From an uncultured Actinomycetota bacterium (GTDB lineage Bacteria > Actinomycetota > Actinomycetes > Mycobacteriales > Micromonosporaceae): a stretch of 64,000 nt of DNA. Position 1 is the first letter of the stretch, and each line of letters begins with the position of its first letter. Below are positions 44,751 to 55,387 of this stretch, piece by piece. Where the stretch lies: the NCBI GenBank assembly GCA_963727415.1, contig CAVSGF010000010.1:354902-418901 (forward strand), read 5' to 3'. The notes under the pieces are model-generated. The model was not told where the DNA came from. It searched no databases and saw only the letters and a list, made by a program, of their open reading frames with translations. The position numbers and the translations under genes are program-made.

Positions 44751-45530
44751 CTAGGCGAGCGCGCCGGCGACCGCCACCTGCCGGTTGGCGATGTCCAGGT
44801 GGCGTGTGGTGTAGCGGGCTAGATTCCGGGCTTGCTGGTCGGTCAGCAGGTCGCAGACCCAGTCCCAGTGCAGCGATACCCGGTGGCCCGGCCGGATCCC
44901 GGCGGTGATGGCGACCCGTGCCGTCTCCGGCTCGGCCATCGCGTCCAGGGTCAGGAACCGTCCATCCCAGCGGAGGCGGCGGGTGGCCACCACGGCCGAA
45001 TCGCCGGACACCGACACCACCTGACCCCAGCGGATCCGGCACCGGTCCAGCACGGTGAGAGCCCGGTCGGCCTTGCGGTCATCGCGGAGCAGACCGACCC
45101 ATGGGTACACGCCGAACACATGGAAGCTGTGATGCGGAACCCCGCCGGCGATCACTGTCTCGGCGAGTTGCCCGAAATGGCTGCCGACCCGGGGCCGGAA
45201 CCGGTCCTCCATCGATGAGCCCATGGCCGCGATCGGTACCCGGTCAAGCAGCCGGTTGCCCACCCAGTACGCCTCGACCACCCGCCGGTCCAGCGGATCA
45301 CCGACGCCGGTGGACTCCGCGATCAGCCGCAGGTACGGCCACGCACCGTGAAATTCCTGAGCCAGCTGGCGCAGACCGGCGTCGACAACACCGGCCATTC
45401 CGTACTCATGGAAGGCGACGCTGTCGGTCGGCCCGCAGTAGCCAAGCGAGTTCGGCGGGTACGCGTACCGCTCGAACAGCAGCGGGCCGGGCAGCTTGGT
45501 CGGCGTCGCGCCGATCCCGGTCTCGATCAT
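44751..45530 (-). CDS. Conserved hypothetical protein, hydrogenase-maturation-cluster associated
   Basis: 259 aa. Its start overlaps the hypC stop (ATGA). Confidence 0.45.
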   Translation of the reverse strand: MIETGIGATPTKLPGPLLFERYAYPPNSLGYCGPTDSVAFHEYGMAGVVDAGLRQLAQEFHGAWPYLRLIAESTGVGDPLDRRVVEAYWVGNRLLDRVPIAAMGSSMEDRFRPRVGSHFGQLAETVIAGGVPHHSFHVFGVYPWVGLLRDDRKADRALTVLDRCRIRWGQVVSVSGDSAVVATRRLRWDGRFLTLDAMAEPETARVAITAGIRPGHRVSLHWDWVCDLLTDQQARNLARYTTRHLDIANRQVAVAGALA

Positions 45531-45802
45531 CGGGTAGTCACCTCGGCGTCGTGGGTCTCGATAACGCCCAGGTCGGGCGGCTCGTCGGCGAGCGCGGCCA
45601 GCGCCTCACGTGCCTCGTCCTCGGAGATCACTTCGAGCGCCATACCCATGTGAACGAGCAGCCAGTCGCCGACCGCCACGGCGTCCGGATCGTCGAGCAC
45701 TCCGACGTTCACGTGCCGGATCACGCCGGCCATATCCACTTCGACCAGGTCGGGAAGGCCGGTCGCGGTGGAGGTCACCTGCGCGGGCAAGCCAAGACAC
45801 AT
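45527..45802 (-). CDS. hypC: [NiFe]-hydrogenase maturation chaperone HypC
   Basis: The N-terminus MCLGLPAQV is the HypC signature. Confidence 0.7.
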   Translation of the reverse strand: MCLGLPAQVTSTATGLPDLVEVDMAGVIRHVNVGVLDDPDAVAVGDWLLVHMGMALEVISEDEAREALAALADEPPDLGVIETHDAEVTTR

Positions 45803-45835
45803 GGTCCGCTCACCTCCCTTCCGGATGTCGGCCGG

Positions 45836-52491: not shown

Positions 52492-54291
52492 TCAGGTGGC
52501 GAGCGTGACGGCCATCGGCGCGTGACTGGTCTCCAGCACCTTGCCGCCACCGAGATACATGTGCACGCCACACGGCAGGCACGGGTCGAAGCTGCGGACC
52601 GCCCGCATGATGTCGATGCCCTTGAAGCGGTCCGGCGGATTCTCCTCGAAGATCGGTGTGTTCTGCACCGCGTCCTCGTACGGTCCGGGCGTCCCGTACA
52701 CGTCACGCACGCTGCCGTTCCACGGCGTCGGCGGGTACGGGTGGTAGTTGGCGATCTTGCCGTCGCGGACCACCATGTGGTGTGACAGCACACCGCGAAC
52801 CGCCTCGGTGAAGCCGCAGCTGACCGCCTCGTTCGGCACCGAGAACGGCTCCCAGGTCTTGGTGTTCCCGGCGCGTACCTCGGCCAGCGCCTGCTCGACG
52901 AAGTGCAGCGCGCAGGCGGCGGCGTACGCCTGGAAATAGGTTCGGGCCCGGTTACGCTCGATCGCGTTGCTCCACTTCGGGATCTTCCACTCGAACGTGA
53001 CTTCCGGCTTCGACATGGTCTTCGGCAGGTTGATCAGCACGCTACGGCCGGTCGACTTGACGTACCCGAAGTCGACGAGCTGGCCGAGAGCCGTCGCCCA
53101 CAGCCGGGCGATCGGGCCACCGCCGGTGTCCAGCGCCAGGTGATCCTTGCCGTCGAACCAGCGCGGCGACATGGTCCAGCTGTACGCGTTGTCGAAGTCG
53201 CGCTTGGCCGGCTTGGGAATGGTGTGCTGGTTCCACGGGTGACGCGGGTCGACCTCGTTGCCCAGCGGATCGCGGGGCACGAACAATTCCTTGCCCACCC
53301 AATCCTCGTAGTAGGAGTGGCCGAGCAGGATCCGGATGCCGAGGTTGATGTCGACCAGGCTGTTGGTGACCAGCTTGCCGTCGACCACGACCCCCGGGCT
53401 GACGAACATCTTGCGGCCCCAGTCGGCCATGTTCTCGTAGGTGAAGTCGCAGTACTCGGGGTTGTTCAGGCTGCCCCAGCAGCCCAGCAGTATGCGCCGC
53501 TGCCCGACCTTCTCGTAGCCGGGAAGCGCCTCGTAGAAGAAGTCGAACAGGTCGTCGTGCATCGGCACGACCCGCTTCATGAACTCCACGTAGCGCATCA
53601 GCCGGGTCAGGTAGTCGGTGAACAGCTGGATGGTGGCGACCGTGCCGACCCCGCCCGGGTAGAGCGTCGACGGATGCACGTGCCGGCCTTCCATCAGGCA
53701 GAACATCTCCCGCGTGTACCGGCTGACCTGCAGCGCCTCGCGATAGAACTCGCCCTCCAGCGGGTTCAGCGCGCGCATGATGTCGCCGATCGTGCGATAT
53801 CCGTGGGCGGCCGCGTTCGGCGCCTCGGTGCTGTTGGCACGCTCCAGCACGCCCGGGTTGGTCTCCTTGACCATCCGCTCGCAGTAGTCGACGCCGACCA
53901 GGTTCTCCTGGAAGATGTTGTGGTCGAACATGTACTCGGCGGCCTCGCCCAGGTTGATGATCCATTCGCCGAGGTGCGGCGGGCGCACCCCGTAGGCCAT
54001 GTTCTGGTTGTAGACCGAGCACGTGGCATGGTTGTCACCGCAGATGCCGCAGATCCGGCTGGTGATGAAGTGGGCGTCGCGCGGATCCTTACCTTTCATG
54101 AAGATGCTGTATCCGCGGAAGATCGACGACGTGCTATGGCACTCGACGACTTCCTTTTGCTTGAAGTCAATCTTCGTGTAGACACCGAGACTGCCGACGA
54201 TGCGGGTGATCGGGTCCCACGCCATCTCCACCACATCGGTACGGCTCCGGTCGGCGCCGGCCTTCGCCGGCTGTTCCTTCATCGTCGTCAT
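52492..54291 (-). CDS. hhyL: [NiFe]-hydrogenase large subunit, group 1h/5-like
   Basis: N-terminal RICGICGDNH and C-terminal DPCLPCGVH nickel-binding motifs, with a 22-aa C-terminal extension for protease cleavage. Confidence 0.75.
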   Translation of the reverse strand: MTTMKEQPAKAGADRSRTDVVEMAWDPITRIVGSLGVYTKIDFKQKEVVECHSTSSIFRGYSIFMKGKDPRDAHFITSRICGICGDNHATCSVYNQNMAYGVRPPHLGEWIINLGEAAEYMFDHNIFQENLVGVDYCERMVKETNPGVLERANSTEAPNAAAHGYRTIGDIMRALNPLEGEFYREALQVSRYTREMFCLMEGRHVHPSTLYPGGVGTVATIQLFTDYLTRLMRYVEFMKRVVPMHDDLFDFFYEALPGYEKVGQRRILLGCWGSLNNPEYCDFTYENMADWGRKMFVSPGVVVDGKLVTNSLVDINLGIRILLGHSYYEDWVGKELFVPRDPLGNEVDPRHPWNQHTIPKPAKRDFDNAYSWTMSPRWFDGKDHLALDTGGGPIARLWATALGQLVDFGYVKSTGRSVLINLPKTMSKPEVTFEWKIPKWSNAIERNRARTYFQAYAAACALHFVEQALAEVRAGNTKTWEPFSVPNEAVSCGFTEAVRGVLSHHMVVRDGKIANYHPYPPTPWNGSVRDVYGTPGPYEDAVQNTPIFEENPPDRFKGIDIMRAVRSFDPCLPCGVHMYLGGGKVLETSHAPMAVTLAT

Positions 54292-54298
54292 CTGAAGA

Positions 54299-55387
54299 TC
54301 ACCACGTCTTCTGGTAGCCGGTCAGCAGCTCGGAGTTCTTCCGGCGCCACTTGGGTTCCTTGTCCACCGTGCGGGCGGTGAAGCCGCGCAGGGTCCGGAC
54401 CACGGTGCCGTACATCTGGCTGGCCGTTGATGACACTCGGGCGCCTGGTGGCTCGTCCATGAACGGCATGAACTTGTCCGGGAAGCCGGGCATGGTGCAC
54501 GCGATGCAGATGCCGCCGACGTTGGGGCAGCCTCCGACTCCGTTGATCCATCCGCGTTTCGGGACGTTGCACTTGACCACCGGACCCCAGCAGCCGATCT
54601 TGACCAGGCACTCGGGTGTCCCGTACGAGGTGGCGAACTGTCCCTGCTCGTAATACCCGGCTCGGTCACAGCCCTCGTGCACGGTCTGCTCGAACAGCCA
54701 GCGCGGCCGCAACGCCTCGTCCAGCGGGATCATCGGGGCCTGGCCGGCCACCTGGTACAGCAGGTAAAGGATCGTCTCGGCCAGGTTGTCCGGGTGGATC
54801 GGGCAGCCGGGCACGCACACGATCGGTAGCCCGGCCTTGGACTTCCACTCCCAGCCGAGGTAGTCGGGTACCCCCATCGCGCCGGTCGGGTTGCCGGCCA
54901 TCGCGTGGATACCGCCGTACGTGGCGCAGGTGCCGACGGCCAGCACCGCGGTGGCCTTCGGAGCCAGCCGGTCCAGCCACTCGCTGGTGGTCATCGGCTG
55001 CCCGGTCGCCGGGTTGTTGCCGAAGCCGCACCAGTAGCCCTCGGGCTTGATCGCCTCGTTCGGGATCGAGCCCTCAACCACCAGTACGAACGGTTCCAAC
55101 TCGCCCCGGTCGGCCTTGTGCCACCATTCGATGAACGTGTCGCCCCCCTGCTCCGGACCGCACTCGAAGTCGATCAGCGGCCAGTGCACGGCGACCTTTG
55201 GCAGGCCGGGCAAGGCACCGAGCGCGATCTCCTCGATGCTCGGCTGGGTGGCCGCGGTGAGGGCGACGGAGTCGCCGTCACAACCCAGACCACCGTTCAT
55301 CCAGAGAATGTGCACGACCGGTTCGTCCGTCGACTCCGGCGTACCGGCGCTGTTCTTGTCGGTCTGCGCTACCGGCACCGCGCCCAC
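54299..55387 (-). CDS. hhyS: [NiFe]-hydrogenase small subunit without Tat signal (cytosolic, group 1h/5-like)
   Basis: It has Cys clusters for Fe-S centres (GCDGDS, GTCATYGG, CVPGCP, CWGPVVKC, CIACTMPGFPDKF) and no RRxFxK motif. GTG start. A second GTG at 55378 has better spacing to the GAGGAG SD. Confidence 0.7.
   Translation of the reverse strand: MGAVPVAQTDKNSAGTPESTDEPVVHILWMNGGLGCDGDSVALTAATQPSIEEIALGALPGLPKVAVHWPLIDFECGPEQGGDTFIEWWHKADRGELEPFVLVVEGSIPNEAIKPEGYWCGFGNNPATGQPMTTSEWLDRLAPKATAVLAVGTCATYGGIHAMAGNPTGAMGVPDYLGWEWKSKAGLPIVCVPGCPIHPDNLAETILYLLYQVAGQAPMIPLDEALRPRWLFEQTVHEGCDRAGYYEQGQFATSYGTPECLVKIGCWGPVVKCNVPKRGWINGVGGCPNVGGICIACTMPGFPDKFMPFMDEPPGARVSSTASQMYGTVVRTLRGFTARTVDKEPKWRRKNSELLTGYQKTW

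Follow-up and report, generated by a model that had tools for sequence, protein, structure and literature searches.

We focus here on a hydrogenase operon and on the insertion sequence (IS) that interrupts it, both found in a stretch of 64,000 nucleotides (hereafter the window, G+C about 70%) from contig CAVSGF010000010.1 of assembly GCA_963727415.1, which comes from an uncultured bacterium of the Micromonosporaceae. Within the window, the region analysed is the minus-strand block 44751-55387. It contains the standard and complete structural and proximal-maturation operon of a cytosolic group 1h (Hhy, "actinobacterial-type") [NiFe]-hydrogenase from a Micromonosporaceae-like actinobacterium, and an IS110-group element lies within the string of genes. 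The principal biological sink for atmospheric H2 is formed by hydrogenases of group 1h, with which soil actinobacteria scavenge H2 from air. Taken as a whole, the locus is in our view probably best explained as an ordinary group 1h operon that received a bridge RNA-guided IS110 insertion, the inserted element having been inactivated recently and probably exerting polarity on the genes that lie beyond it.

Gene content of the operon

The features of the locus are collected in Table 1. An earlier reading, made from the letters and the open reading frames (ORFs) of this DNA (the sequence-only reading), had proposed a minus-strand gene order, and each of its items is present at the coordinates given.

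Table 1. Features of the hydrogenase locus, in positions of the window.
Feature	Coordinates	Strand	Basis
hhyS, group 1h small subunit, 362 aa	54299..55387	-	Pfam Oxidored_q6 and NiFe_hyd_SSU_C; best PDB match 5AA5_A HofK
hhyL, group 1h large subunit, 599 aa	52492..54291	-	Pfam NiFeSe_Hases; best PDB match 5AA5_C HofG
hhyE, NifU-like iron-sulfur protein	51419..52477	-	Pfam NifU, 79 bits; weak Rieske match, 22 bits
DUF5947 protein, 233 aa	50721..51422	-	Pfam, 214 bits; syntenic in L004, L005, L006 and L008
DUF6084 protein, 217 aa	50066..50719	-	Pfam, 282 bits
Conserved hypothetical protein, 511 aa	48534..50069	-	No family in Pfam or NCBIfam
hupD-type maturation endopeptidase, 179 aa	47998..48537	-	Pfam HycI, residues 29-155; NCBIfam TIGR00072, 127 bits
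IS110-group insertion sequence, 1495 bp including both CT cores (46536-46537, 48029-48030)	46536..48030	+	Alignment with L002, L003 and L009-L014
Left non-coding end (LE), bridge RNA-like	46538..46780	+	Guide-to-flank matches in nine copies
IS110 transposase (DEDD recombinase) pseudogene	46781..48008	+	Three-frame translation, DNA alignment, Pfam domains of the repaired product
DUF6893 gene, 34 aa, single hydrophobic helix	46422..46526	-	Pfam PF21833, 44 bits (gathering cut-off 24.6)
Tandem array, 17-bp unit, about 11.5 copies, two alternating variants giving a 34-bp period	46220..46410		Tandem Repeats Finder and repeat search
hypA, 117 aa, MHE N-terminus, CxxC...CxxC zinc site	45836..46189	-	Pfam HypA, 80 bits; NCBIfam TIGR00100
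hypC, 91 aa, MCLG N-terminus	45527..45802	-	Pfam HupF_HypC, 73 bits
DUF6390 protein, 259 aa, final operon gene	44751..45530	-	Pfam, 298 bits; same position in L006, L007 and L008

The comparison loci without the IS are L006 (ENA ERZ25039533 contig_12887, 1.6 Mb) and L008 (the Rugosimonospora metagenome-assembled genome (MAG) DATEJJ010000999), and L004, L005 and L007 are further synteny loci. The order hhyS-hhyL-hhyE-DUF5947-DUF6084-large hypothetical-hupD is the same in a Streptomyces genome and in an Acidobacteriaceae MAG, and L006, L007 and L008 share the full order of eleven genes as far as DUF6390. HupD is 67% identical to its counterpart in L006 and HypA 68%, while HhyL reaches 88% with L006 and 91% with L008. 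In L006, the corresponding position holds a gene of 473 aa whose product shares 53% identity with the 511-aa protein, which also occurs in L004, L005 and L008. Decay of the cluster as a whole was rejected, since none of the eleven genes has lost its frame and their order is co-linear with that of the relatives.

The gene that follows hhyL, previously described as nifU-like, is read as hhyE because its product combines a NifU domain with two C-terminal CxxC motifs (CPDC and CAGC), as does the HhyE protein that is essential for Hhy activity in Mycobacterium smegmatis (PMC6883350). The start of this gene is uncertain, the longest ORF reaching 52582. Its tail encodes a lineage-specific PAGVAG repeat, through an 18-bp repeat of 3.1 copies at 51462-51517, which has no counterpart in L006. 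The genes hypB, hypD, hypE and hypF were found neither in the window nor in the 20-kb L006 locus; since the latter is free of the IS, their absence from the window was not caused by the insertion. They may be encoded elsewhere, in the company of further hyp copies.

Two Logan contigs from the independent run ERR11594398 (L001 and L015) match the window. The identity is 100% over 2270 nt for L015, which covers the DUF6084 region, and the other contig matches at 99.9% over 1106 nt; the HypC protein is identical on L001. The same strain in this second sample has identical flanking genes. Exact look-ups of the 179-aa HupD, the 34-aa ORF, a 119-aa transposase fragment and a 484-aa frame-1 ORF returned no record, and a contig scan with HupD gave distant relatives only (Streptomyces kaempferi, 54%; an Acidobacteriaceae MAG, 47%). 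In a protein search, the nearest other HupD was 77% identical and lay on a contig of 980 nt.

Assignment of the enzyme to group 1h

The group was tested through bit scores against all PDB sequences. HhyL scored 1068.6 bits with HofG of the structure 5AA5, whereas the next hydrogenase scored 147 and the group 2a Huc enzyme of M. smegmatis 107. Likewise, HhyS scored 552 bits with HofK of 5AA5, with 142 for the next match. The sequence-only reading had considered that the large subunit might fall outside group 1h, and no such outcome was seen in the PDB comparison. Short of a HydDB run, and as far as sequence comparison can take it, we consider the assignment to group 1h settled.

The details of both proteins agree with this assignment. 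The alignment of HhyL to 5AA5_C pairs residues 7-577 of the query with residues 7-579 of the chain, and the deposited mature chain ends at the His of DPCLPCGVH. Because it ends there, the 22 residues that follow His577 in HhyL are taken to be the extension removed by the maturation endopeptidase. The two motifs that the sequence-only reading had quoted, RICGICGDNH and DPCLPCGVH, are both present in the HhyL translation, where they fit the L1 (RxCGICxxxH) and L2 (DPCxxCxxH) patterns, whose definitions are reportedly specific to the group. The small subunit had been said to lack a twin-arginine (Tat) signal, and indeed its N-terminus (MGAVPVAQTDKNSAGTPESTDEPVVHILW...) carries no RR in the 25 residues preceding the Oxidored_q6 domain, and the open frame of hhyS offers no start codon further upstream. 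The genomic partner of hhyS and hhyL is hhyE, with its NifU domain and two CxxC motifs, as expected for group 1h instead of a cytochrome b subunit.

Among the closest known systems is that of Ralstonia eutropha H16, whose HofK/HofG (5AA5; group 1h, formerly group 5) is the structural reference and the best PDB match of both window subunits. The two share a mature large subunit that ends at the same His and a small subunit without a Tat signal. They differ in that the host of the window operon is an actinobacterium with other accessory genes. For the window enzyme, the high-affinity and O2-insensitive oxidation of atmospheric H2 that marks group 1h would be a prediction. In M. smegmatis, too, the Hhy genes (MSMEG_2722-2718) comprise hhyS and hhyL and, after them, one whose NifU-like product has a pair of CxxC motifs in its C-terminal part. 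Unlike in that species, the operon in the relatives of the window forms one overlapping string that continues through hupD, DUF6893, hypA, hypC and DUF6390, and in the window this string is interrupted by the IS and the tandem array.

Layout of the operon in relatives without the IS

In the relatives that are free of the IS, the genes of the operon overlap by 4 nt or sit 1-30 nt apart, and these overlaps and short gaps indicate a single, translationally coupled transcript. The hupD stop and the DUF6893 start overlap as ATGA in L006 and L007; L008 has the same layout, its DUF6893 copy being unannotated. The 34-aa ORF that had been listed beside the IS is no stray frame: it is the DUF6893 gene, a conserved member of the operon that occupies the same place in L006, L007 and L008.

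L006 and L008 hold the same eleven genes as the window, in the same order and with the same divergent neighbours (YceI, MIase, a helix-turn-helix (HTH) regulator and an ATP-binding cassette (ABC) transporter). Unlike the window, they carry neither the IS nor the tandem array. Set beside the tightly overlapping operons of these two loci, as the sequence-only reading had suggested for genomes that lack the IS, the window shows that the insertion separates DUF6893-hypA-hypC-DUF6390 from the genes upstream. The four separated genes are 63-73% identical to those of L006, and the upstream accessory genes 52-67%.

A regulator of the HTH_3 type, which diverges from the operon (57224-57673, plus strand), has 149 aa, as against 183-185 aa in L006 and L008, and only residues 4-89 of the L006 protein align with it. 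It may be truncated or simply divergent.

The IS110 element and its insertion site

The window copy was compared with eight others, two of them intact (L002 and L003) and six plasmid-borne (L009-L014). All copies begin with CT/AATGAG (slashes mark the junctions) and most finish with GGGAT../CT, the right ends of L009 and L010 being unclear. The CT core is found at both junctions in the window copy and in most of the eight others. The element has no terminal inverted repeats; its left end (LE) spans 243 nt, and its right end (RE) extends about 20 nt past the stop codon of the transposase. Once its reading frame is repaired, the transposase (about 409 aa) matches PF01548 (DEDD_Tnp_IS110) with 116.6 bits and PF02371 (Transposase_20) with 41.2 bits, and it spans 100% of intact IS110 proteins of 408 aa, with 88-91% identity, from Micromonospora, Plantactinospora, Rugosimonospora and related metagenome contigs. 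The family named by the sequence-only reading is therefore the right one, as is its place within the gene string, but the strand had to be corrected, the transposase being read from the plus strand and the operon from the minus.

The same reading had put the IS between the structural and protease genes on one side and hypA-hypC on the other. This separation is real, but the position is not intergenic, as the element lies in the last four codons of hupD. Indeed, the hupD stop codon (47998-48000) is within the IS, and the last 31 nt of the gene (47998-48028) are IS sequence. The tail of the protein now reads ...TERHPRSLNVKQ before the stop, nine IS-encoded codons replacing three original ones, outside the HycI domain. 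Excision in silico, keeping one CT, restores a hupD end that reads ...EFAGRTERSRP, with a TGA stop that overlaps the ATG of the 34-aa ORF (ACCATGAAA), and the reconstructed empty site reads ...GGACAGAG/AG/GAGCAGACCATG.... This empty site had 0 matches in the JGI metagenomes. The insertion site, GCTC/CT/CTC, falls within the Shine-Dalgarno sequence of DUF6893, and 10 nt separate it from the original hupD stop, which lies downstream. The insertion destroyed the ATGA coupling between hupD and DUF6893, and the AGGAG Shine-Dalgarno of the latter (46533-46537) was rebuilt from the flank and the IS core.

Two further observations concern elements of this type. The right end of the IS (48006-48030) holds a perfect TTGACA, which circularisation would place 19 nt upstream of the left-end TAATGA; circles of IS110 elements form a promoter at their junction, and the arrangement would fit such a promoter. 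Besides, the Candidatus Mycobacterium methanotrophicum plasmid NZ_CP097321 (L013) carries at 2102-2230 the meeting point of two related IS110 copies arranged head to tail, 13 nt apart (...GGGATGTCT GACAGGAAACCAC CTAATGAG...), the first of which is enlarged by some 280 bp of additional sequence close to its 3' end.

A bridge RNA-like left end

The 243-nt left end is highly conserved among the copies and contains four guide-like segments. Those of the target loop sit in the frame GAGCACTC-[LTG]-GGAC...CCTG-[RTG]-ATCG, in which LTG and RTG are the left and right target guides. In the window copy, the LTG is GCTCCT (46610-46615), and its 6 contiguous nt are those of the left flank and core of the site. 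The RTG is GGAGAG (46632-46637), which is complementary to CTCTCC; the actual right flank is CTCTCT, so that five of six positions match. The target that goes with these predicted guides is GCTCCTCTCT, and on the operon strand the insertion site corresponds to the purine-rich Shine-Dalgarno region GAGAGGAGC.

This correspondence extends to the nine copies. The LTG matches its own left flank over a mean of 5.9 contiguous nt, as against 3.0 for non-cognate pairings, and the RTG matches its own right flank at mostly 5-6 positions (3 in two copies), as against a non-cognate mean of 2.2. In the donor loop, GGGATGTC (46679-46686) is identical to the right end of the IS, and the left end CTAATGAA finds its complement in TTCATTAG (46717-46724). 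This donor guide covaries with the left end of the element: the three Streptomyces copies (L009, L010 and L014), which have CTAATARG ends, carry CCTTATTAG instead. RNAalifold applied to the nine left ends gave two stem-loops with 8 compensated pairs (double changes).

The guide definitions used here agree with those of IS621 and the IS110 group (Durrant et al. 2024, PMC11208160). Like the recombinases of that group, the window element combines DEDD and Tnp domains, a long LE, a short RE, no inverted repeats and a duplicated CT core, and its LE resembles that of IS621 in having two loops, one with segments that repeat the left flank and are the complement of the right one, the other matching the ends of the element. 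It differs from IS621 in belonging to an actinobacterial branch (about 90% identity to Micromonospora and Plantactinospora copies), in having a frameshifted transposase and in that its RNA is a prediction from sequence. It also differs in its target, which for IS621 is a repetitive extragenic palindromic (REP) element and here lies inside a coding sequence and a Shine-Dalgarno. The bridge RNA of a circular IS intermediate would thus have guided recombination at the near-cognate site GCTC-CT-CTC(T), and this is the most likely way in which the IS arrived, to judge from the guides and flanks of the nine copies.

An Rfam match to Ms_AS-4, an actinobacterial small RNA, was also found within the IS (47616-47696, minus strand). 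It covers the full model with 48.2 bits (gathering cut-off 50), is antisense to a conserved region of the transposase and lies over the second of the frameshifts described below. The match probably reflects the conservation of IS110 coding sequence and not a separate RNA gene.

Age and authenticity of the transposase frameshifts

The sequence-only reading had counted two 1-bp frameshifts in the transposase, and three-frame translation and DNA alignment find exactly two. Compared with the intact copies L002 and L003, to which it is 89-91% identical, the gene has two 1-bp deletions that spread it over three frames, one after 47464 (GAGCA-CTCGG in the window, GAGCACCTCGG in the intact copies) and the other after 47634 (GGACCG-TCCTC in the window, GGACCGATCCTC in the intact copies). 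In the assembly sequence, the element thus lacks the intact reading frame of an autonomous IS110, and on account of these two deletions we infer that it cannot move by itself.

From these frameshifts it had been concluded that the insertion is old, which is not what the rest of the copy suggests. In a three-way comparison with the intact copies, 61% of the window-only substitutions (30/49) fall at codon position 3, and the ratio of synonymous to non-synonymous changes, 26:12, is like those of the intact copies (29:12 and 43:16). Moreover, neither in-frame stops nor deletions of greater length occur in the transposase, and the IS has kept its ends, core and guides intact. Such purifying-type substitutions, together with the lack of stops and the intact ends and guides, argue against a long neutral decay. 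They suggest, as far as the assembled letters allow, either that the inactivation is recent or that the deletions are consensus errors.

The view that an old, fixed and decaying IS has permanently uncoupled hypA and hypC from the structural promoter can draw on the presence of two independent frameshifts in one gene of 1.2 kb, when some 45 other genes showed none. The window contains no second copy of the IS, and no near-identical intact copy turned up there or among database proteins, the best of which is 91% identical; the flanking genes are identical in the second sample. We nevertheless consider it improbable, because the substitutions are indistinguishable from those of intact copies, the ends and guides have been preserved, and the four genes downstream of the IS have not diverged further from L006 than have the accessory genes upstream of it. 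Besides, no relative closer than the 77% identical HupD was found that could show fixation.

An intact and active IS, whose frameshifts would be consensus errors of a metagenome assembly, is unlikely too, if somewhat easier to accept. It would account for the purifying-type substitutions and the intact ends, which are those of an active copy; polishing errs most at multi-copy elements, and related loci come from ENA assemblies with names of the form contig_NNNNN, which we take to be the style of a long-read metagenome assembler. Yet there is no general indel problem in this sequence: 11/11 operon genes align to the L006 proteins as single in-frame high-scoring segment pairs, and about 30 other window genes match Pfam near full length. 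Long homopolymers are not involved in either deletion (one shortens CC to C, the other removes a lone A), and it would be odd for two errors to fall within 170 bp when the remainder of the 64 kb has none. A recent inactivation of the inserted element remains the reading that we prefer.

The tandem array upstream of hypA

The tandem repeats that had been noticed upstream of hypA were found as well. The array fills the spacer between the DUF6893 stop and the hypA start, which measures 232 bp in the window, 1 nt in L006 and 10 nt in L008. It is a real feature of the genome, since an independent Logan contig (L001, ERR11594398) begins inside it. By comparison with the relatives, it is a second lineage-specific insertion into the operon, beside the IS.

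The array unit has no relatives in the PLSDB plasmids and no second copy in the window, and in the JGI metagenomes it gave 5 single chance matches in unrelated sequence and no arrays. Other tandem arrays do occur in the window, at 51462-51517 (the hhyE tail), 57760-57810, 61746-61807, 62081-62151 and 33548-33626. They have units of 16-18 bp or 30 bp in 2.6-4.4 copies that are 85-100% identical, and three of them lie in intergenic spacers near ABC transporter genes. Given several arrays of 16-18-bp units in the window, slippage-type minisatellites seem to be a habit of this genome, the array before hypA being the largest.

Two other explanations of the array were discarded. A REP-like hairpin or terminator was dropped, as the RNA fold of the array is no better than that of shuffled sequences (z +1.17) and it contains no inverted repeats. 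An N-terminal extension of HypA, through an ORF of 188 aa from the GTG at 46402, was rejected because hypA has its own GGAGGGAG ribosome-binding site and a canonical MHE start, and its relatives have no such extension. Finally, the array, alone or with the left end of the IS, might serve in this lineage as a regulatory module, such as a set of binding sites or a switch that works through variation in length, and drive or gate hypA-hypC-DUF6390. We consider this very improbable; if true, hydrogenase maturation would be controllable separately from the structural promoter in this lineage.

Probable consequences for the expression of the distal genes

A transcript of the operon strand would, after the hupD stop, cross about 1.46 kb of untranslated antisense IS RNA and then the array before reaching hypA. 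On this strand, the RNA of 47300-46540, which is the stretch of about 750 nt nearest to DUF6893, contains 38-46% C and 20-31% G. Untranslated RNA that is rich in C and poor in G favours Rho loading and termination. Such polarity would lower the transcription of DUF6893-hypA-hypC-DUF6390 from the hhyS promoter. We hold loosely that the transcription of these distal genes is probably reduced in this way, and the uncoupling of hypA and hypC from the structural promoter, which the sequence-only reading had regarded as likely, is plausible.

It is also possible, if less probable, that the insertion has little effect, the hydrogenase being active and the distal genes being expressed through read-through, through a promoter in the IS left end or the array, or with the help of hyp paralogues. 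Indeed, DUF6893, hypA, hypC and DUF6390 are all intact and have kept their ribosome-binding sites (AGGAG before DUF6893 and GGAGGGAG before hypA), the IS shows no excess of intrinsic terminators on the strand of the operon (1 weak, for 0.5 expected), and hypB/D/E/F must lie elsewhere, possibly with more copies of hypA and hypC. However, no promoter-like site was detected, the translational coupling seen in the relatives has been lost, and the long untranslated and partly C-rich RNA would favour Rho-dependent termination.

An ordinary operon that received a guided insertion with probable polarity therefore remains, for us, the best account of the locus, and several points weigh against it. On the side of the guides, the whole case for a bridge RNA comes from the comparison of nine copies, one position of the RTG does not match the site, the left end folded as a single sequence does not surpass its shuffled versions (z -0.53), and Rfam gave no bridge RNA family match to the left end, the matches being the near-threshold Ms_AS-4 and a spurious microRNA. 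On the side of inactivation, the two deletions are known from the assembly consensus alone, and the source resembles a metagenome assembly. As for polarity, it is pure inference, and intact hypA, hypC and DUF6390 would fit just as well with genes that are still expressed. Scans for promoters and terminators, both around the IS and ahead of hhyS, gave results at chance level, and a second hypA or hypC may exist elsewhere in the genome.

Both parts of this account are known biology, and the understanding of hydrogenases and of IS110 systems is unchanged by it. What is new is the exact junction, the guide match that explains the site and an IS copy that is not visibly old. The locus provides a clean natural example of an IS110 bridge RNA-like guide that matches a non-REP target at the junction of a coding sequence and a Shine-Dalgarno. 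It also means that the presence of hhyL alone is no guarantee of an undisturbed operon, and whether a soil actinobacterium still matures its group 1h enzyme matters for metagenome-based estimates of the H2 sink.

Other genes in the window

Apart from the hydrogenase locus, three further features were recorded. About 1.5 kb beyond the end of the operon, with an amidohydrolase gene in between, there is a gene for a DUF222 and HNH endonuclease protein (41799-43241, plus strand), which we take to be of the 13E12-repeat type common in actinobacteria. At 25965-33775 (minus strand), a string of three genes encodes a 1676-aa DUF3686/DUF7902/AAA ATPase and proteins of 672 and 251 aa, the last two without a Pfam family. 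At 34000-40405, the neighbourhood resembles those of copper handling, with a P-type ATPase that carries an HMA domain (37331-39592), a DUF5134 protein, and two membrane proteins with Caa3_CtaG domains (34000-35052 and 35399-37363).

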